Source: an uncultured archaeon
GTDB taxonomy: Archaea > Asgardarchaeota > Lokiarchaeia > Sigyniarchaeales > SOKP01
Direction of reading: 5' to 3'
DNA length: 54,910 nt
Assembly: GCA_964447495.1 (NCBI GenBank)
Contig: CAYUTF010000009.1
Coordinates: 1 to 54,910 of the forward strand
Under the pieces are notes generated by a model. The model searched no databases, was not told the origin of the DNA, and was given only the letters and a program-made list of their open reading frames with translations. Shown here one piece after another: positions 3,215 to 51,843 of the stretch. The first letter of the stretch is position 1, and each line of letters begins with the position of its first letter. The position numbers and the translations under genes were made by a program.

Positions 3215-5161
3215 GTGAAGTTTATGATTAAAGATACACGTTTTACAGATGAAGAAGGAACGGTTTTAATGCTAGGAAATGAAGCAGTTGTGAGGGGATG
3301 TCTCGAAGTAGGAGTTAGTTATGTGGCACAATATCCGGGAACTCCGACAAGTGATATTGGAGAGACTTTTCAAAAATTAATAAAAGAAGAATCAGAAGTT
3401 AGTGATTTTCTGATCCATCATTGGGCAATTAACGAGGCTGTAGCTACTTCGGAATGTGCTGGTGCGGCATGGACTGGCTGTAAAGTGTTAAATCCTATGA
3501 AACATGTTGGCCTTAATGTGGCCAGTGATGCCTTGAGTGTTATAGCTTTGAATGGACCTAATCCAGGTGCAATGGTTATCCTTGTGGGAGCCGATCCTGG
3601 AAGTTTAGGTTCACATCAAGAACAAAATGAGCGATTTTATACTTGGATGTTCCATCTTCCGTGTTTTGAACCTCATACTCCTCAAGAATGTAAAGAATTT
3701 ACTAAATTAGCTTTTGAATTATCAGAAAAATTTGATACTGTATTTGAGATTCGTACAACTACTCGTAGTGCTCATTCCAGGGGATATGTAGAATTAGGAC
3801 CTTTAAAAAGAGGGGATGTAAAAGGAAAGTTTGTTAGAAACATTCCTAAATTCAATTCACTCCCTCCCCATGCTATTAACAATCATATTAGATTATATGA
3901 AAGAATTGAAGCTATAAGAAAAATCATTCCTGAGCTTAAAATAAATAAAGTTTATCCTGGAAAAAATAAGATTGGTATAATTACCAGTGGTATGCCATTT
4001 GGTTATTCTATTGAAGCTTTGCAACAACTAGGAATTAATGATGTACCCATCTTGAAATTAGGCATGATTTTCCCTCTGAATTATGAAGAAATCATAGATT
4101 TCATAAGTAATCTTGAAAAAGTGATTATAGTAGAAGAATTAGAGCCTTTCTTGGAGGTAAAAATCGCTGAAATTGCTCATAAATTTAAAATCGATGTGGA
4201 TATTATCGGTCAAGATTATCTTCCAAAATATAATGAATTTTCTACTGGACTTGTGGCAAATCGATTAGCAACAATATTTAATATCAAATCGAATCAAAAA
4301 GTAGATAAAGCAATAGAGATGTTTAATTCATATAAGGATATTATTCCTAGTCGCTTTCCAAGCTTCTGTTCAGGCTGTCCAGAACGTGCCACTCTCTATA
4401 CCATTTTAAAAGCTACTAATAAATTGGAAAACACTGTTGTTTGTGGTGATATTGGTTGTTTTGTAATGAGTTTTTTTCCCCCTCAACAATGTAGTGATTT
4501 AATTATTTGTATGTCGGGAGGTTTGAGCGCTGCTATTGGAATGTCCGAAAAGACAGATCAAAAAGTAATAGCATTCATAGGAGACTCAACATTTCTCCAT
4601 ACTGGGATGGCACCTTTAACAGAGGCAACTAATTATAACTCTAATGTATTATTATTTGTATTTGAGAATTTTTGGACGGCAATGACGGGTCATCAACCTG
4701 TCTTAGGCTTAACAGATAAGCGGTTATCAATAGAAAAAATATGTGAAGCTGTAGGAGTTCCATGGATAAGAGTTGAAGATTCTTATAATCCAAAACAACT
4801 TATTAAAACTATAAATGAAGGTCTAAATACAAAGGGGTTTAAAGTAATAATTGTTAAAAGAGAGTGTGCTCTTCAAGCTCATAGGTGGAGAACAAAGAGA
4901 ATAAAAGAACTTAGACAACAAGGGAAAAAAACGCAAGACACTTCATATTATATTGGAGGATGCCAGCTATGTTATGAATGTGCCCGTATTTTAAGTTGTC
5001 CAGCAATACGGAAAGTTGAGAAAAATGGTATAGAAGAAATGCAAATAGACCAAGAAAGATGCATTAAATGTGGTGTTTGCTATGAAATTTGTCCCAATGG
5101 GGCAATTCGAAAATCTATAATAAATTTATTAGAAGAAGAGGTGCCCTTTCGTGAACTTTGA
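3215..5161 (+). CDS. iorA: Indolepyruvate:ferredoxin oxidoreductase alpha subunit
   Basis: LGNEA, YPGTP, MKHVGLNVA, CSGCP, GDIGC, TPP-binding GDSTFLH..N and two C-terminal 4Fe-4S Cys clusters. The true start is probably ATG 3224. Confidence 0.9.
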   Translation: MKFMIKDTRFTDEEGTVLMLGNEAVVRGCLEVGVSYVAQYPGTPTSDIGETFQKLIKEESEVSDFLIHHWAINEAVATSECAGAAWTGCKVLNPMKHVGLNVASDALSVIALNGPNPGAMVILVGADPGSLGSHQEQNERFYTWMFHLPCFEPHTPQECKEFTKLAFELSEKFDTVFEIRTTTRSAHSRGYVELGPLKRGDVKGKFVRNIPKFNSLPPHAINNHIRLYERIEAIRKIIPELKINKVYPGKNKIGIITSGMPFGYSIEALQQLGINDVPILKLGMIFPLNYEEIIDFISNLEKVIIVEELEPFLEVKIAEIAHKFKIDVDIIGQDYLPKYNEFSTGLVANRLATIFNIKSNQKVDKAIEMFNSYKDIIPSRFPSFCSGCPERATLYTILKATNKLENTVVCGDIGCFVMSFFPPQQCSDLIICMSGGLSAAIGMSEKTDQKVIAFIGDSTFLHTGMAPLTEATNYNSNVLLFVFENFWTAMTGHQPVLGLTDKRLSIEKICEAVGVPWIRVEDSYNPKQLIKTINEGLNTKGFKVIIVKRECALQAHRWRTKRIKELRQQGKKTQDTSYYIGGCQLCYECARILSCPAIRKVEKNGIEEMQIDQERCIKCGVCYEICPNGAIRKSIINLLEEEVPFREL

Positions 5162-5801
5162 AGAGACCGATATCATAAATATTATAATAGCAGGGACTGC
5201 CGGACAGGGCGTGATAACTTTAAAACGATTAATAGAATTCGCCGCACAAAAATCAGGCATAAGAAGATGTTTTGGAACTGAACATCATGGATTAGCACAA
5301 AGAGAAGGAGCAATTGTAAGTCATACACGTTATCAAAAAGAACTATATATAGATGAACTTAAAAATATACAATCCCCCCTAATCTCTTATGGAGATGCAG
5401 ATTTATATATATGTATGGAACCCGTAGAAACATTAAGGCATGGGCTTTTTGCATCAAATAAAACTGCATTTGCATTAAATTCCTATTCCATTCCTGGAGT
5501 AATGATTACTGCTGGTTTAGAAGTATATCCAAATCTGAAAAAAATTGAAGTTATTTTAAGACAATACACTAAAAAAGTATATTTTATGAATGCTACTGAG
5601 CTATCTTTAAATAATTTTAATTCTAATCAATATGTAAATATAATAATGCTTGGGTTTGCCTTAATTACAGAAAAGTTGCCTTTTATAGAACTCGAGTATT
5701 ATGAAGAAGTTATTAAAGAATGGCTCAGAGAACCGGATAATAATATAAAAGCATTACACTTAGGCTTGGAAAAAGGCAAACAAATTATTAATAATATTTA
5801 A
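5151..5801 (+). CDS. iorB: Indolepyruvate:ferredoxin oxidoreductase beta subunit
   Basis: GTAGQG and HGLAQREG motifs. Overlaps the iorA stop; GAGGTG SD precedes the GTG start. Confidence 0.85.
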   Translation: MNFEETDIINIIIAGTAGQGVITLKRLIEFAAQKSGIRRCFGTEHHGLAQREGAIVSHTRYQKELYIDELKNIQSPLISYGDADLYICMEPVETLRHGLFASNKTAFALNSYSIPGVMITAGLEVYPNLKKIEVILRQYTKKVYFMNATELSLNNFNSNQYVNIIMLGFALITEKLPFIELEYYEEVIKEWLREPDNNIKALHLGLEKGKQIINNI

Positions 5802-5823: not shown

Positions 5824-6360
5824 TTAACCTGATGTTCTTCGAATTACTTTAACTAAGCCTTTATCTCGTAATTTGCCCATCATATCTTCCACTTCAGATA
5901 AAGGTTTTTGAGCAATTTCTGCACATTGCTCAACTGTATTCATCCCATCACATACTTTCAACAATTTGAACTCTTCCATACTTAGCATGCCTAAATGAAC
6001 ACTCATTTCTGGAACTTCTTTAACAACTATTGGTATTCTTGCTTCTTTACCTGCTTCCAAAGCTTTTGCTCCAACGTCAGTAATACTTGGAGAATCCCCA
6101 AAAAAGCTTTTTACACCTGTAACATCATAATTATCGTTAATATACACATATACCTTGTGTTCTTGCCCAGATATATCATCAGGATCTTCAGGATCAGGAT
6201 AGGGATTGGAATGTGTATGTTCTTTGGTATATATTCCCATTTTAAGTCCATTAATAATCTCCTTTTTATCAAGTTTTAATGCTACCATATTCTGGCATAT
6301 ATCACACCACGCCCAAGCTTCAATTAAGCTAAAATATTTTCTTACTTTATTTTCTGGAAT
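5824..6360 (-). CDS. Hypothetical protein: N-terminal CxxC/His putative Zn domain plus C-terminal winged helix; probable ATT (or ATA 6366) start
   Basis: The frame is open upstream of the track start 6288 and encodes PENKVRKYFSLIEAWAWCDICQN. It is bounded by a TGA inside AAGGTGA. The C-terminus resembles a wHTH (LLKVCDGMNTVEQCAEIAQKPLSEVEDMMGKLRDKGLV). Confidence 0.75.
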   Translation of the reverse strand: MPENKVRKYFSLIEAWAWCDICQNMVALKLDKKEIINGLKMGIYTKEHTHSNPYPDPEDPDDISGQEHKVYVYINDNYDVTGVKSFFGDSPSITDVGAKALEAGKEARIPIVVKEVPEMSVHLGMLSMEEFKLLKVCDGMNTVEQCAEIAQKPLSEVEDMMGKLRDKGLVKVIRRTSG

Positions 6361-6614
6361 CGTTATTCACCTTTACTTTCAAGTATGATGGTTATTTTTT
6401 AGTTTTTATAAGATTATTATATTTTAATTATGTTGTTTATGAATTTAAAGTTTAATTAACTTTCCCATGATATTTTAGTGTAGAAATTAAATTTTAAATT
6501 TATTATAGAAAACCCTCTTATGGGATTTAAGTAATGAATTTAAAAACGAAAAGAATTAAAGTTATTTAATATTTTTTTTTCCATTATAGTTAATTAATTA
6601 GATAATAATTAATA

Positions 6615-21778: not shown

Positions 21779-21796
21779 AAAGAGGGGTGAAAAGCG

Positions 21797-22699
21797 ATAG
21801 TTAATGTTTTAGAAATTCCGGATGAAGAATTAATCTATCCTGGTACAAGAGCTTGTGCAGGATGTTCAATGGCTCTTATTTATCGTATTGCACTAAAAGC
21901 TTTAGGTAAAAATACAATTATTACAGTACCAGCAAGTTGTTTAACGGTTTTGCATGGTATGCAGGGATTTTGTACAACTAAAGTATCTGTACTCCATACT
22001 CCTTTTGCGACTACAGGTGCTTCGGCATCAGGGATTGTGGCTTCATTAGAAGATAAAGGCTTAAATGGAGATATTAATGTGGTTGCATTTGCGGGAGATG
22101 GAGGCACGGTAGATATTGGTATTCAAAGTTTAAGCGGTGCAGTTGAAAGAGGAACTAATTTTATCTTTGCATGTTATGATAATGAAGCATATATGAACAC
22201 AGGTGTTCAACGGAGCGGAAGTACTCCTCCAGGTGCATATAGCACAACTACACCAAATGGAAAGATTGGATATAAAAAAAATATGCCAAAAATAATAGAG
22301 GCTCACGGTGCACCTTATGTTGCAACTGCGATATCCTCTTACCCATTAGATATATATGAAAAATTTTCTCAAGCTAAAAAGATTTATGGCCCCAAATATA
22401 TTCATATTCTATCACCTTGTCCTCCTGGTTGGGGTTATGAACCAAAAGATTCAATAAAAATAGGAAGATTAGCAGTACAAACAGGATTTTGGCCCTTATA
22501 TGAAGTAATCGAGGGAAAATTTATATTATCAAAGGATAGTAGAAGATTTCTTGACCCCTCCAAGCGTAAACCGATTGAAGAATACTTGTCAGCTCAAAAA
22601 AGATTTCGAAATATTTCTAGCGATACTATAGAGGATTATAGGAAATATATTAATAATTTATGGATAGAAATCCAAAAACGATTAGAAGAAAAGCAATAA
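21797..22699 (+). CDS. porB: Pyruvate/2-oxoacid:ferredoxin oxidoreductase beta subunit; probable ATA start
   Basis: GDGGTVDIG, YDNEAYMNTGVQRS, SPCPPGW. The conserved N-terminal PGTRACAGC lies upstream of the track ATG (21869). An in-frame ATA at 21797 follows GAGGGGTGA. Confidence 0.92.
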   Translation: MVNVLEIPDEELIYPGTRACAGCSMALIYRIALKALGKNTIITVPASCLTVLHGMQGFCTTKVSVLHTPFATTGASASGIVASLEDKGLNGDINVVAFAGDGGTVDIGIQSLSGAVERGTNFIFACYDNEAYMNTGVQRSGSTPPGAYSTTTPNGKIGYKKNMPKIIEAHGAPYVATAISSYPLDIYEKFSQAKKIYGPKYIHILSPCPPGWGYEPKDSIKIGRLAVQTGFWPLYEVIEGKFILSKDSRRFLDPSKRKPIEEYLSAQKRFRNISSDTIEDYRKYINNLWIEIQKRLEEKQ

Positions 22700-24534: not shown

Positions 24535-25140
24535 TCATTTTTCATTCTTAAAAATATGCCCCTGCAGAATAAAATCTTCTAAATGGGGAACATCATAGAT
24601 TTCATAATTTTCTATCTTATATTGTACTAATTTATTAAATTTCGCGATAGTCACTTTTTTTTTTAAGATTGAGAGTACAATTTCAATATTGTTTTTTCCT
24701 ACTCTAATTAAATTATCTAATCCCTCCTCAAAATCGTAAAGATTTTGGAAAGCAGTAATCGAAAAAATCTCATCGAATATATTCTTTCGAAATGGAAGAT
24801 ATTCCAGATCAGCAACTATTAAATGAATATGTTGAGATATTCTCGAATAACTCAATTTTAACTTGAACATTTTTAACATATTCCTTGATATATCTGCTCC
24901 TACATAATTCCATTTCAATCGAGTAATCGTTCTCACACATTTTAAGGCAAAATCAGCAAGCAAACCAGTTCCGCAACCTGCATCCAGAATTATTTTTTCT
25001 CTAAAGATATATTCTTTTAAAAAAGTTCTAAATTTATTTGATTGAATCTCATGGTATCGCTTATCATAATATTGAAATGAAGAATTATATTTTTCGATAA
25101 TTTGTCTTTTTTTATCTATATGAATAGTATTGGTTTTCAC
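24535..25140 (-). CDS. Class I SAM-dependent methyltransferase
   Basis: LDAGCGTG, DISRNML, ADLEYLPF. Confidence 0.85.
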   Translation of the reverse strand: MKTNTIHIDKKRQIIEKYNSSFQYYDKRYHEIQSNKFRTFLKEYIFREKIILDAGCGTGLLADFALKCVRTITRLKWNYVGADISRNMLKMFKLKLSYSRISQHIHLIVADLEYLPFRKNIFDEIFSITAFQNLYDFEEGLDNLIRVGKNNIEIVLSILKKKVTIAKFNKLVQYKIENYEIYDVPHLEDFILQGHIFKNEK

Positions 25141-25274
25141 TAAAATTACTCCAACTAAATTAAAAACTTAATAAGCGAAATTTAACCGATAATAAGGTTT
25201 TAATTCAAAAAAGTTTTTCTTTAAATTATCTTTTTAATAATAATAATAATTATTTTTTTAATTAAGGTTTTAAT

Positions 25275-25538
25275 ATGTCAAGTAGAAATAGCAATCAACA
25301 GAAATCAAAAAACCCATTGCACATTTTACAGAATGCTATGGGATCAATCATTATCTTAAGGTTAAAGGATGGAACAGAATATAGAGGATTATTAAAAGAA
25401 ATTGACGCTTACATGAACATGATCATAGAAGATTGTACAGAAATCATGGATGGGAGTCCTGTAGCCAAATATAATGAAATATTTATCCGTGGGAATAATT
25501 TACTATTTATCAAACCTGATGCTTCTCAAATCATGTAG
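25275..25538 (+). CDS. Sm-like (LSm) RNA-binding protein
   Basis: Sm1 LKDGTEYRGLLKEIDAYMNM and Sm2 IFIRGNN. Confidence 0.95.
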   Translation: MSSRNSNQQKSKNPLHILQNAMGSIIILRLKDGTEYRGLLKEIDAYMNMIIEDCTEIMDGSPVAKYNEIFIRGNNLLFIKPDASQIM

Positions 25539-25562
25539 AATTAATAATAAAGTTGAAAAGTT

Positions 25563-25994
25563 ATAAAGACTTCCCTCAAGCTTATTTCTGTTATTGGTTA
25601 TGGAACGTTCATTACTAAGGGATATTGGAAAAAAGCATCTCATACAGAAGTTTGCTTAGTTAGAAATTATACCCGAATTTATCCTACTGAATTTTGGTAC
25701 CCTGTTGTTTTACCATCGAGAGATTCTTTTTGGGCATTAAAATTTGAGGTTCGTCCTGATCAATTGAAAAAATTAGATAATTATGAGGGAGTGCTATCGT
25801 GTATTTTTAAACGGGTTAAAACACAAATATTATTAAAAAAGGAAATAAGCCAATCTGCCTATATTTATATCCCTACTACTGAATTTATAAAAGTAAATGG
25901 TTTGCATCTCGAATTGGATAAAAATGATAGATGGAAAGAGGAGATTAAAAAATACCCAAAAATTGTGCGTAAATTCCCTGAATTGATACTCTGA
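25563..25994 (+). CDS. Gamma-glutamylcyclotransferase (AIG2-like) family protein; probable ATA start
   Basis: The frame of track ORF 25764 is open for 67 more codons upstream. It encodes the family N-terminal motif ISVIGYGTF and later LDNYEG. No ATG/GTG/TTG occurs before 25764. Confidence 0.8.
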   Translation: MKTSLKLISVIGYGTFITKGYWKKASHTEVCLVRNYTRIYPTEFWYPVVLPSRDSFWALKFEVRPDQLKKLDNYEGVLSCIFKRVKTQILLKKEISQSAYIYIPTTEFIKVNGLHLELDKNDRWKEEIKKYPKIVRKFPELIL

Positions 25995-26891
25995 TTATTC
26001 CACGAGTTTGGCTATAACTTCATTATTTCTAATTATAGCATAAGATGCGGGATTTTTGCTATATTTACCTCTATAATTTTCTGAAGAAAATATAGATAAT
26101 AAGTGCTTATCAAAAAACCACTTATAACCACTTGGGAACATTTCATGAGATCTAATTAAATAACTAAGATTATTGGCATTCATAAATTCGGTAAATACAT
26201 CTTCTCCAAAAAATTGGATTCCCTGTCCTCTATAACTTTTCTCAAAGCCAGATAAACACTCTTTCGGGTCATTCCATAAGATATGATATAACCCACTATT
26301 TAAATGTTTTAGAACCATATGTCTTTCTCTAGATGCACACCCTTTTAATTTTCTAATCAGCTCAAAATCTTCTGGAATTCCACCATGTAAACATAAGATA
26401 CGGTTGTTAACAATAGCACAATAAGGTAAAACTTCATATAATGCTAATACCTCGTTAAAACGCTCTTTATCTTTAAACTTAGACGTAAATTCTTTGAAAA
26501 AACCATAATATTCGTTCATTTCTAAAGTTTCATGATTTCCTCTTAGAAGATAATATTTTTTTGGATTTAAAATCTTTAGGATTAAGAGGGATATAAAACA
26601 TTCTAACTGCTTTTCCCCTCGATCAACAATATCTCCTAAGAAAATTACAAATTTCGGATTAGTGTTTTCAATAATTTCCAATATTTTTCTCAAAGAATCA
26701 AAATTTCCATGAATATCGCCTATGACGTAAACCTCATGATCATTTTCAGTGACCTCTAATTCCAAGCATGTATTTTCGTTACCAATTATATCGCTTGCTT
26801 TGCATAAAATATCTGAAATATCCGTAATTTTTAATTTTGGTATTCTATTAGGATTAATAAGTAGTTCTTCTAAAATATCGCTGTCAATCAA
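25995..26891 (-). CDS. PPP-family Ser/Thr protein phosphatase
   Basis: GDIHG, GDIVDRG, RGNHE, HGGI, LWNDP, IRSHE. Confidence 0.93.
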   Translation of the reverse strand: MIDSDILEELLINPNRIPKLKITDISDILCKASDIIGNENTCLELEVTENDHEVYVIGDIHGNFDSLRKILEIIENTNPKFVIFLGDIVDRGEKQLECFISLLILKILNPKKYYLLRGNHETLEMNEYYGFFKEFTSKFKDKERFNEVLALYEVLPYCAIVNNRILCLHGGIPEDFELIRKLKGCASRERHMVLKHLNSGLYHILWNDPKECLSGFEKSYRGQGIQFFGEDVFTEFMNANNLSYLIRSHEMFPSGYKWFFDKHLLSIFSSENYRGKYSKNPASYAIIRNNEVIAKLVE

Positions 26892-27026
26892 GAGAATTTA
26901 TCAAATTTAAAATATTATTCTTTCTTTGTAATTTTAATTAAGATTTTTTAAAAATATTGTCTCTAATATTTAAAACTAAAAATACAAATTTTAGATATAA
27001 ATAAAATCTCAGAAAAATAAGTAATT

Positions 27027-39514: not shown

Positions 39515-39985
39515 TTAAGCCTCAATTTCACTTTTATTCCAACCTAATCGAGCGCATAAATTTTCTAAAGTAATAAATTTATTATAATAAGAAAGTCTAT
39601 TCTTATCAGCATTATAAATTTCCAGCGGATTTAATTTTTGATATCGTTTTTGAAATCTCTCCGGTATTCCACCAATATATACATGAATCCGCTTATAAGC
39701 GTCTTTTCCACGATATTTCTTTCGAGGTAACATTTTCTTTATTACGTTTCTCATAAAAGTATCGGGTCTTCGCGGCCAAAATGGACCTTTTCGTGGATTT
39801 GTAGCAGTACTTATGTTCAATTTCGCTAAATACGTTTCATGAATATTACCTTTTGTACCACTAATTATTGCATCTTTAGCATTTATTACGACAATATTAT
39901 ATCCTAATAAGGTCAATTTCGCAATTTGACTACAAAAGCGACCTAAAATCTTATTCGTGGCGTCTATCAATTGGTATTCTAACAA
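39515..39985 (-). CDS. rpl13: 50S ribosomal protein L13 (uL13)
   Basis: IDATNKILGR, NPRKGPFWPRRP, MLP. Confidence 0.96.
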   Translation of the reverse strand: MLEYQLIDATNKILGRFCSQIAKLTLLGYNIVVINAKDAIISGTKGNIHETYLAKLNISTATNPRKGPFWPRRPDTFMRNVIKKMLPRKKYRGKDAYKRIHVYIGGIPERFQKRYQKLNPLEIYNADKNRLSYYNKFITLENLCARLGWNKSEIEA

Positions 39986-40017
39986 AATTTTTGCACCTTG
40001 TATCTATTTTTATCAAA

Positions 40018-50146: not shown

Positions 50147-50256
50147 GTTCCTAAATTTGATTTATAATATAATGATCTCTAAATCACAAAATTTATTTTT
50201 TATAAAAAATAATAATTTTCTATATAATCAATTGAACAATATTAGTTGAATAAAAT

Positions 50257-51843
50257 ATGTCAGTACCTATATTGATATTAAAAGAAGGGACAGAAGAGAC
50301 AAAAGAAAAAGAAGCTCGAAATCAAAATATCAATGCAATTATAGCTATTACAGAGACTGTTAGATCTACCTTAGGACCTAAAGGTATGAATAAAATGTTG
50401 GTCGATTCAGTAGGAGACATAACGATTACAAATGATGGCGCTGAAATTCTTAAGAATCTTGATATTGAAAACGTAGCGGCAAATATGATGGTAAATATCG
50501 CAAAAGCAATTGACGAAGAAATTGGTGATGGAACCACTAGTGCTGTGATTTTTTCGACCGCCTTATTATCAAACGCTTTAGAACTAATAGAACAAGGTAT
50601 ACATCCTAAACCAATCACACATGGATATAGATTAGCAAATGATAAAGCATTGGCAATAATAAAGGATATTGCTGAAGAGATCTCTGAGGGCGATGATGCT
50701 ATACTGCAAAACATAGCGAGAACCGCCATGAATTCTAAGGATGTAGTAGGAATAAAAGATTTTTTTGCCAATTTGGCATTAAAAGCTATTAAGAATATAT
50801 CAGAGAAAGATGGAAATACTTTTTCTAAAGTTGGAAATGTCAAAATCGTGAAAGCACCTGGAAAATCGCTAAAAGAGTCTGAATTAATCAATGGCGTCTA
50901 CATTCAAAAAGAAAAAGTCCATAGTTCCATGCCCAGCATTATAAAAAATGCAAAAATTGCTGTGATCAGGAAAAAATTAGATGTGGTCAAAACAGAATTT
51001 GACGCCCAAATTAGAATTACAAGTCCAGGAGATATTCAGAAATTTTTGGATCAAGAAGATAAAATGCTTTTAGACAGTCTTCAGATCTTTAAAAATTTAG
51101 GTGTGAATATGATTGTAAATAGTCAAGACATTTCAGATAAATTTGGAGCTTATTTAGCAAGAGAAGGTATTGCAGCAATTAAAAATTTAGGCGATGAAGA
51201 CATTAAATCGGTATCCAAAGCAATTGGAGCTAATAGAGTCGATGATCTAAAAACTCTTAGTCAAAATGATTTAGGATTTGCTCAAACAGTTAAATTCGAG
51301 AAATTAGATAAAGATGAATATACACAATTCCTAGGATGTAAAAATCCAAAATCTGTTACAATTGTGTTAAAAGGTGGTTTAGACAAAATTCTTAGCACAG
51401 CTGAAATCACCTTACATGATGTTCTTTCTGTAATATCCAAAACGATGGATACAAAAGCAGTTGTTGCTGGGGGCGGTGCTATTTATCTTGAACTTGCAAA
51501 AAGATTAAGAGAATATGCGAACCAGATTAGCGGTAAAGAACAATTATCAGTTAACGCATTTGCAGTAGCTCTCGAGGAAATCCCTAAAACACTTATAAGA
51601 AATGCGGGATTAGATGAAATTGAAAACATTACCGAATTGCGAGCAGCACATAAATCAGATAATGATAAATGGATTGGTATCGATACTATCACCAATACGA
51701 TTGCTGACAACTATGCTAAAGGCATCGTTGAACCTGCAGCATTAATTAATCACGTCATAAAATCGGGAACAGAATTAGCAAACCTAATTTTAAGAGTAGA
51801 CAGAATAATTAATGCAAAATCATCTAAACCCAGTGGAATGTAA
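50257..51843 (+). CDS. Thermosome (group II chaperonin) subunit
   Basis: STLGPKGMNKM, TNDGAEIL, GDGTTS, GGGA, VEP, ILRVD. Confidence 0.96.
   Translation: MSVPILILKEGTEETKEKEARNQNINAIIAITETVRSTLGPKGMNKMLVDSVGDITITNDGAEILKNLDIENVAANMMVNIAKAIDEEIGDGTTSAVIFSTALLSNALELIEQGIHPKPITHGYRLANDKALAIIKDIAEEISEGDDAILQNIARTAMNSKDVVGIKDFFANLALKAIKNISEKDGNTFSKVGNVKIVKAPGKSLKESELINGVYIQKEKVHSSMPSIIKNAKIAVIRKKLDVVKTEFDAQIRITSPGDIQKFLDQEDKMLLDSLQIFKNLGVNMIVNSQDISDKFGAYLAREGIAAIKNLGDEDIKSVSKAIGANRVDDLKTLSQNDLGFAQTVKFEKLDKDEYTQFLGCKNPKSVTIVLKGGLDKILSTAEITLHDVLSVISKTMDTKAVVAGGGAIYLELAKRLREYANQISGKEQLSVNAFAVALEEIPKTLIRNAGLDEIENITELRAAHKSDNDKWIGIDTITNTIADNYAKGIVEPAALINHVIKSGTELANLILRVDRIINAKSSKPSGM

Follow-up and report, generated by a model that had tools for sequence, protein, structure and literature searches.

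Sequence evidence for Shine-Dalgarno-led near-cognate start codons in a genus of Asgard archaea, and a GGCT-like gene with a disrupted start

In bacteria, infC (encoding IF3) and the E. coli gene pcnB start at AUU, and such a weak AUU codon behind a ribosome-binding site (RBS) sets expression or feeds back on it. Standard gene callers, to our knowledge, allow ATG, GTG and TTG only. The eukaryotic initiation factor eIF1 autoregulates through the poor start context on its own mRNA (PMC6237735, in the sections of that paper available), and the Asgard tubulin gene AtubA is assigned a 'rare ATT start codon' with an RBS in the accessible part of its report (Sci Adv 2026, PMC13394414). Proteogenomics of Deinococcus deserti (PMC2830850), according to excerpts of the study, revealed that non-canonical initiation codons are used in an unusual way there. 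Belinky et al. 2017 (PMC5622118) state, in the portion of the article available, that non-AUG starts go with a stronger Shine-Dalgarno (SD) sequence; AUU and CUG starts were 'few' there and were excluded, and 1 of 61,358 AUG starts had switched to AUU. Ribosome profiling of Haloferax, as described in the available passages, yielded about 30% near-cognate alternative sites, which were set aside (PMC7261190). In our search of the literature, which had supplements (possibly with start-codon tables) outside its scope, we found no systematic account of AUU, AUA or CUG initiation in Asgard archaea.

The window analyzed here, a stretch of 54,910 nt, is contig C9 of the 3.81-Mb metagenome-assembled genome of a Lokiarchaeia-type Asgard archaeon (G000, hereafter the source genome; 223 contigs, 31.3% GC, 98% complete). 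Its archaeal origin fits the thermosome, Sm, RIO-type and TFB genes present; no Rfam matches were found in the window. The original prediction was that three window genes share an SD-TGA element followed by 6 nt and AT(A/T). The literal pattern is indeed present in all three, at GGTGA 21786-21790 with ATA 21797, at GGTGA 6371-6367 with ATT 6360 and at GTTGA 25552-25556 with ATA 25563, but at the last of these, a GGCT-like gene, the AGTTGA proved to be the remnant of a TTG start rather than an SD, as detailed below. The same AGTTGA element had been said to precede the thermosome ATG; it does so at 50244-50249 (+ strand), with a gap of 7 nt instead of 6 before the ATG at 50257-50259. Near four further window genes ATG is absent and GTG or TTG is evidently used (24535-25167, 25995-26897 and 39515-40003 on the minus strand, 5133-5801 on the plus strand). 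Across source-genome ORFs of at least 200 codons, the first NTG (ATG, GTG or TTG) is ATG in 1548, TTG in 434 and GTG in 235.

Stop-to-stop ORFs were built over the whole source genome by a home-made rule, with no gene finder. Among closed ORFs of at least 150 codons (n = 2804), 136 have 30 or more codons between the stop upstream and the first NTG, and 46 have 60 or more. Many of these start-less 5' zones score as coding, and by eye they open with GGTGA, 6 nt and ATT or ATA. The SD consensus of the source genome, GGAGGTGA, ends 6-7 nt ahead of the start, and a 5-mer of this consensus at a spacing of 5-8 nt precedes approximately 6% of first NTGs (189/3217), a low rate in agreement with reviews that describe, in their accessible text, SD sequences as rare in Lokiarchaea (PMC12993045, PMC7531240). 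A simple table of the codons following GGTGA was non-decisive, since ATT and ATA together accounted for 18/80 codons at 6 nt yet for 15/81 at 15 nt, and it was therefore replaced by a zone test. This test covered 3220 non-shadow ORFs of at least 100 codons, and scored all in-frame codons that lie 8 or more codons ahead of the first NTG for a 5-mer of GGAGGTGA at an aligned spacing of 5-8 nt. ATT (22/790) and ATA (11/604) ranked first and second of all codons in their association with such an SD, followed by CTG (3/56) and ACG (3/67), on an all-codon background of 96/12035. The excess was significant for ATT and ATA pooled (33/1394 vs 63/10641; OR 4.1, p = 3.4e-9) and for the five near-cognates pooled (43/1782 vs 53/10253; OR 4.8, p = 1.6e-12). 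At the background rate, chance would account for approximately 9-10 of these 43 sites. The spacing of the ATT and ATA codons peaked at 6 nt (19 sites), and first NTGs numbered 64 and 66 at 6-7 nt.

These results support near-cognate, SD-associated initiation as a systematic feature of the source genome, and here the prediction of a relaxed, SD-driven choice of start codon was borne out by a test that was positive, frame-specific and peaked at 6 nt. It could be argued that the ATT/ATA signal is an artefact of composition or annotation, or a product of assembly errors or pseudogenes, with the true starts elsewhere: ATT and ATA are abundant codons, the ORF rule was our own, and peaks of the type 'NNTGA + 6 nt + first NTG' arise partly by construction, as the first NTG after an in-frame TGA (GTTGA + 6 nt + NTG is frequent, 24/124, and so are the AGTGA and GATGA versions). 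We consider this hardly credible, because the out-of-frame controls were flat (2/564 and 1/557 for ATT; 6/702 and 0/211 for ATA), because two equally AT-rich genomes (G032 and G038) had no effect of such strength, and because Pfam domains begin 5' of any NTG in 20 of 42 candidate ORFs, the weak codons align with NTG starts of orthologues, and ATT or another ATH codon is kept across 15-21 species in aIF1 and TFB.

The 43 SD-led near-cognate sites fall in 42 ORFs of the source genome. A Pfam match (E <= 1e-5) was found in 29 of these, the match being uninformative in 9 of the 42, and 13 were without a match. Homology 5' of the first NTG had been proposed as the check on the idea, and it is there: the Pfam domain starts before the first NTG in 20 ORFs (13 with ATT, 5 with ATA and 2 with CTG), with domains that include Ras-type P-loops, a Rossmann GxGxxG motif, the TFB zinc ribbon, flavodoxin and NiFe hydrogenase. 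CTG occurs behind a strong SD at C14:17108-17584 (+), C2:56109-59114 (-) and C35:19984-20871 (+) of the source genome; in a flavodoxin, whose first NTG lies 98 codons after the CTG, and in an HMA-domain P-type ATPase, the Pfam domain precedes any NTG. Two further ORFs, C126:4393-4944 (-) and C25:16433-16987 (-), were rejected as weak starts. They open after a TGA within ...VCR-TGA-G(V/I)N..., which is typical of HdrA, and judged by eye they are probably cases of selenocysteine read-through of TGA in HdrA-type genes.

Two of the candidates are the first two window genes. The 2-oxoacid:ferredoxin oxidoreductase beta-like gene (21782..22699, +) carries the SD GAGGGGTGA at 21782-21790, followed by 6 nt and ATA at 21797-21799. 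This ATA aligns with ATG (14), TTG (7) or GTG (1) in 22/22 congeners, all of them behind GGAGG/GAGGTGA-type sites, and the first NTG of the source-genome copy occurs 24 codons downstream, past the conserved YPGTRACAGC. As judged from the alignment, ATA 21797 sits on the predicted start codon and is species-specific. The second gene (5824..6371, -), conserved but without a Pfam match, has GGTGA at 6371-6367, 6 nt and ATT at 6360-6358, and its orthologues open with (M/V/I)PENKV. The position of the ATT is ATT in congener G019 and ATA in G017, both behind AAAGGTG; in the other 21 readable congeners it is ATG (19) or GTG (2), mostly without an SD, one locus being masked. Across these orthologues (L117-L139), a strong AAAGGTG is seen with ATT, ATA or GTG starts, and ATG starts are mostly without it.

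Other weak starts are shared by the whole genus. The TFB gene of the source genome (C6:6313-7278, +) has an ATT start after GGTG and 6 nt, and the start position in 21/21 congeners, likewise after GGTG + 6 nt, is ATT (17), ATA (3) or ATC (1); in other families, ATG is present at this position in 5/7 loci. The GTG within the SD is itself in frame. In 16 congeners it is directly followed by TAA or TAG, forming a start-stop pair, and in 4 congeners there is no following stop, such that the GTG could be the start there.

The gene for the fidelity factor aIF1 (SUI1, PF01253; C27:4913-5251, +) has no canonical start in the source genome. Here, as in 15/15 full-length congener orthologues, an in-frame TGA located inside a conserved AAAGGTTGTGA immediately precedes the ORF. 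A conserved ATT occurs three codons past the TGA, corresponding to AAAGGTTGTGA + 9 nt, and no NTG is found before codon 18-109. The aligned start is ATA in genus g5 (2/2), and TTG, GTG or ATG in other genera. Directly upstream, a conserved TTG-TGA makes an in-frame start-stop pair. Inspection of the aIF1 protein for substitutions able to loosen fidelity yielded no candidate: the clade has only 4 fixed differences (F/L, I/V, A/Q and D/E), near the zinc knuckle, and the core motifs are unchanged. A second SUI1 paralogue, in which ATG or GTG is available, was observed in the source genome (C23:10825-11214, +) and in G005 (L266); among the 41 genomes searched with PF01253, it is restricted to these two.

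The original prediction had extended relaxed initiation to the lineage as a whole, which holds for the genus and was not carried further by the other families sampled. In the congener G017, for which 734 kb out of 3.8 Mb were sampled, SD-led codons comprised 7/114 ATA and 3/9 CTG, and the five near-cognates together were enriched (13/305 vs 14/1687, p = 5e-5); together with TFB (21/21) and aIF1 (15/15), this supports a habit of near-cognate initiation that is predicted to be at least genus-wide. No significant enrichment was detected in three genomes of other families, a comparison of limited power that covered 1.6 Mb at 0.4-0.8 Mb each: 4/364 vs 11/2144 in G032 (800 kb), 2/182 vs 4/961 in G038 (400 kb), and 1/189 vs 24/2605 in G033 (400 kb, 54% GC). 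With G032 and G038 pooled, the counts were 6/546 vs 15/3105 (OR 2.3, p = 0.08). Individually convincing near-cognate cases are present in the genomes of other families, without a significant excess at such power. No 16S rRNA was found in the source assembly, and 3' ends were taken from relatives instead; 5 congeners, as well as G032 and G038 from 2 other genera, share GGATCACCTCC as the 3' end of their 16S rRNA. The aragorn listing of the source genome holds one tRNA-Met(CAT) and a tRNA-Ile(TAT). The full set of initiator, elongator and Ile2 CAT tRNAs was not recovered by aragorn in this genome, perhaps owing to introns or assembly gaps.

The third window gene, the GGCT/AIG2-like ORF (25557..25994, +), spans 145 codons from stop to stop. 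It begins 18 nt past the Sm/LSM gene that adjoins it upstream (25266..25538, +; Pfam LSM PF01423, E = 8.7e-21; TAG stop at 25536-25538). The two share a frame, and five stops in the gap rule out read-through from the Sm gene. Positions 25548-25571 read TAA AGT TGA AAA GTT ATA AAG ACT, in which the TGA at 25554..25556 closes the GGCT frame upstream and the TAA at 25548-25550 is likewise in frame. As had been claimed, no canonical start precedes the GYGT motif (25596-25607): the earliest in-frame ATG, GTG or TTG is the TTG at 25764-25766. Within the ORF this TTG takes position 69, and it lies 67 codons past ATA 25563 and 56 codons past GYGT. In-frame NTGs make up approximately 4% of coding codons, so that 69 NTG-free codons would occur in approximately 6% of reading frames; their absence alone is therefore unremarkable, and the weight rests on homology 5' of the first NTG.

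Such homology is evident. The ORF scores 25.8 bits on the GGACT profile (PF06094; E = 1.7e-5), for which the cut-off is 22.8, and its residues 15-117 align on profile positions 4-111 of 120; the alignment with its orthologues begins at residues 3-11, and GYGTF and EGV are invariant in 21/21 sequences of the genus, including the source genome. A YG(S/T) N-terminal motif and a conserved acidic catalytic residue are what we take to be the marks of the GGACT/AIG2-like family. By profile and motifs, the ORF qualifies as a member of this family with putative enzyme activity, keeping G-Y-G-T and E-G-V and differing from it in its low score and disrupted start.

The leader sequence was recovered from several sequencing runs. 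In Logan contigs of DNA runs X1, X3 and X4 and of RNA-library run X10, a stretch comprising at least 25469-25571 is present without a single difference or gap, one of the four runs possibly being the source sample. Because the independent assemblies of the four runs agree, the leader can be taken as real, and an assembly error at the A4 run or at the ATA is ruled out. The RNA-library evidence is a single 151-nt contig (25469-25619), which proves neither transcription nor translation.

Alignment to relatives explains the AGTTGA. In a MAFFT alignment, a TTG at 25553-25555 (context AAAGTTGA) is matched to the in-frame TTG start of 20/20 congeners, which has an AAATTGA-type context; it is this out-of-frame TTG, and not the ATA, that the congeners' start aligns with. 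The distance from the TTG to the GGT of GYGT is 36, 39, 42 or 45 nt in the 20 congeners vs 43 nt in the source genome, a net +1. The additional nucleotide lies somewhere between the A4 run that follows the TTG (25556..25559) and approximately 25569, such that the TTG now opens a 21-codon ORF of its own (25553..25618, +; TAA at 25616-25618), +1 out of the GGCT frame. From its homology to the congeners' TTG, the AGTTGA is an old start codon overlapping a new in-frame TGA and has no SD role; the ATA behind it is thus no third example of the SD-led class. In line with this, no 5-mer of GGAGGTGA was found upstream of the ATA, and the GTTGA has one internal mismatch to GGTGA. Among the weak starts of this genome, that of the GGCT gene is the least secure example.

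The body of the gene shows little sign of decay. Its divergence is ordinary when compared with two reference genes (ratio 1.04, range 0.87-1.15), and of the columns without variation among the 20 congeners only 2 have changed in it, both changes being unique to it. The gene was not found in 4/24 congeners in the genome search, and in a contig of run X1 (record 4) that resembles the window at approximately 92%, 121 unrelated letters between 25531 and 26030 take the place of 498 bases: there, the end of the Sm gene runs on to the downstream phosphatase gene and the GGCT region is replaced. As 25532-26029 is replaced in this contig, a related strain lacks the gene, and the two observations together mark GGCT as dispensable in relatives. 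No closer relative of the gene that could date the frameshift was found, the best identity in the genome search being 61% and the metagenome scan returning 18 loci, all at no more than 58% over the full gene; two short metagenome fragments have 74% identity over 34 residues.

Two explanations stand opposite each other: a rescue start at ATA 25563 keeps the gene weakly expressed, or the gene has been inactivated recently. The ATA (25563..25565) is located 6 nt past the TGA. As the first in-frame near-cognate codon after the stop, in a genome in which ATA starts are supported elsewhere, it would be the most likely rescue start. We give slightly less than an even chance to the possibility that a minority of ribosomes start there and produce full-length GGCT at a low level. 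The ancestral TTG 25553 would have been retained, and a net gain of 1 nt in the ~15 nt that follow would have put it out of frame; ribosomes arriving at the site, or re-initiating past the Sm stop, would mostly take the TTG and make a 21-residue peptide, and the minority initiating at ATA 25563 would yield a little full-length protein from a gene body that is still intact and conserved. Against this, the genomic support for ATA and ATT starts covers SD-led sites only, and GGCT has no SD; in addition, the TTG, a better start codon 10 nt upstream in another frame, should compete.

Fresh inactivation, in which a 1-nt insertion after the TTG has left the ATA unused and the frame open merely for lack of time, is doubtful in our judgment but a serious contender. 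It draws on the now displaced TTG that is conserved in every congener carrying the gene, on the missing SD ahead of the ATA, on the 4/24 congeners in which the gene was not found and on its absence from the contig of the related strain. It has to contend with 145 codons that are still open in a genome of 31% GC, with the retention of nearly all invariant columns at a rate of divergence that is not accelerated, with a genome that demonstrably tolerates ATA and ATT starts, and with an in-frame near-cognate codon directly after the shift. As to the objection that the three window cases might be pseudogenes or assembly errors, the genes at 21797 and 6360 are clean; at GGCT an assembly error is excluded, and the gene may be a fresh null allele.

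Two further routes to a full-length or nearly full-length product appear improbable. The start may lie at one of the in-frame ATT codons downstream, 25584-25586 or 25593-25595, both 5' of GYGT, giving the short N-terminus of the distant orthologues L029 and L030, which begin just 2-4 residues ahead of GYGT. ATT is the best-supported near-cognate in the source genome, yet neither codon is preceded by an SD-like sequence and both are farther from the Sm stop and the relic start context; we regard this as improbable. More improbable still is initiation at TTG 25553 followed by a +1 slip on the A4 run, a possible slip site (AAA A), where tRNA-Lys would move from AAA 25556-25558 to AAA 25557-25559 with GTT as the next codon. 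The re-pairing would be perfect and would land exactly in frame 0, and the context of the TTG is retained. Unprogrammed ribosomal slips are rare, however, and the marks of a programmed +1 frameshift were not found at GGCT: in 20/20 congeners the TTG is in frame with the gene and no shift is needed, such that nothing is conserved, AAA is followed by AGT, the TTG frame presents no slow codon or stop, and no stimulatory element is seen.

For the SD-led genes, the reading that we prefer, and consider probable, is that the genus initiates a minority of its genes, numbering dozens, at AUU, AUA and CUG behind a strong SD, with GGCT a separate case. A strong SD duplex (GGAGGUGA with the 16S 3' end GGAUCACCUCC) would hold the initiation complex with the weak codon approximately 6 nt downstream, and the complex so held would allow Met-tRNAi to pair despite a third- or first-position mismatch, as suggested by existing knowledge on how bacteria and archaea initiate translation. 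Evidence for this use of weak codons comes here from the statistics of SD association, from domains that begin 5' of canonical starts and from the alignment of candidate codons with NTG starts of orthologues. By the same comparisons, some of the predicted weak starts are species-specific substitutions of ATG, TTG or GTG, and others, including those of TFB and aIF1, are genus-conserved. Since the conserved set includes the fidelity factor itself, expression of these genes may be tuned, kept low or made sensitive to aIF1.

A more far-reaching proposal, which we offer tentatively and think rather unlikely, is that the genes with AUU, AUA or CUG behind a strong SD, several dozen at the least, make up one regulon, with TFB, metabolic enzymes, small GTPases and aIF1 among its members, and that their output would depend on the level of aIF1. 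aIF1 would limit its own synthesis through its conserved AUU, as an archaeal counterpart, of independent origin, to the bacterial infC and eukaryotic eIF1 loops, and the same tolerance would let frameshifted or start-less genes such as GGCT persist at low expression.

If the proposed starts are real, standard gene callers would cut short or overlook 20-40 proteins or more in each genome of this genus, including one basal transcription factor and one initiation factor, and would thereby distort the Asgard proteomes that are used for reasoning on the origins of eukaryotes. It would also place a control of start-codon stringency in archaeal relatives of eukaryotes, with aIF1 at AUU and weak codons co-occurring with strong SDs. 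For GGCT the stakes are small, as this is a predicted dispensable enzyme with a damaged start.

The closest parallel is infC, in which, as for aIF1 throughout this genus, the gene of a fidelity factor itself starts at ATT. infC and pcnB, however, are bacterial and involve IF3 and two or three genes, whereas the case described here involves aIF1/SUI1 and dozens of genes, and its autoregulation is a proposal. The resemblance to eIF1 lies in homology: aIF1 is its homologue, and if the aIF1 mRNA carries a weak initiation signal, the same negative feedback would, by analogy, result, with an AUU codon and an SD-like element taking the place of the Kozak context. Like the genes discussed here, AtubA is an Asgard gene that was annotated too short and has an upstream ATT at a plausible RBS distance; it is one gene of another Asgard family, mentioned in a methods-section remark that, in the part of the article available, comes without statistics, genus-wide conservation or a link to aIF1. 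D. deserti shares the use of non-canonical starts at the level of the organism, missed by gene callers; it is a bacterium whose starts, according to the excerpts of that study, were proven by N-terminal proteomics. The association of non-AUG starts with stronger SDs in the available text of Belinky et al. is mirrored in the orthologues of the window's ATT gene, among which a strong SD goes precisely with the ATT, ATA and GTG starts, with the difference that AUU and CUG starts are common enough in this genus for statistics. Near-cognate initiation of this kind is thus known from infC, pcnB and Deinococcus deserti; what is new is its scale, its dependence on the SD and its link to aIF1 in an archaeal genus.
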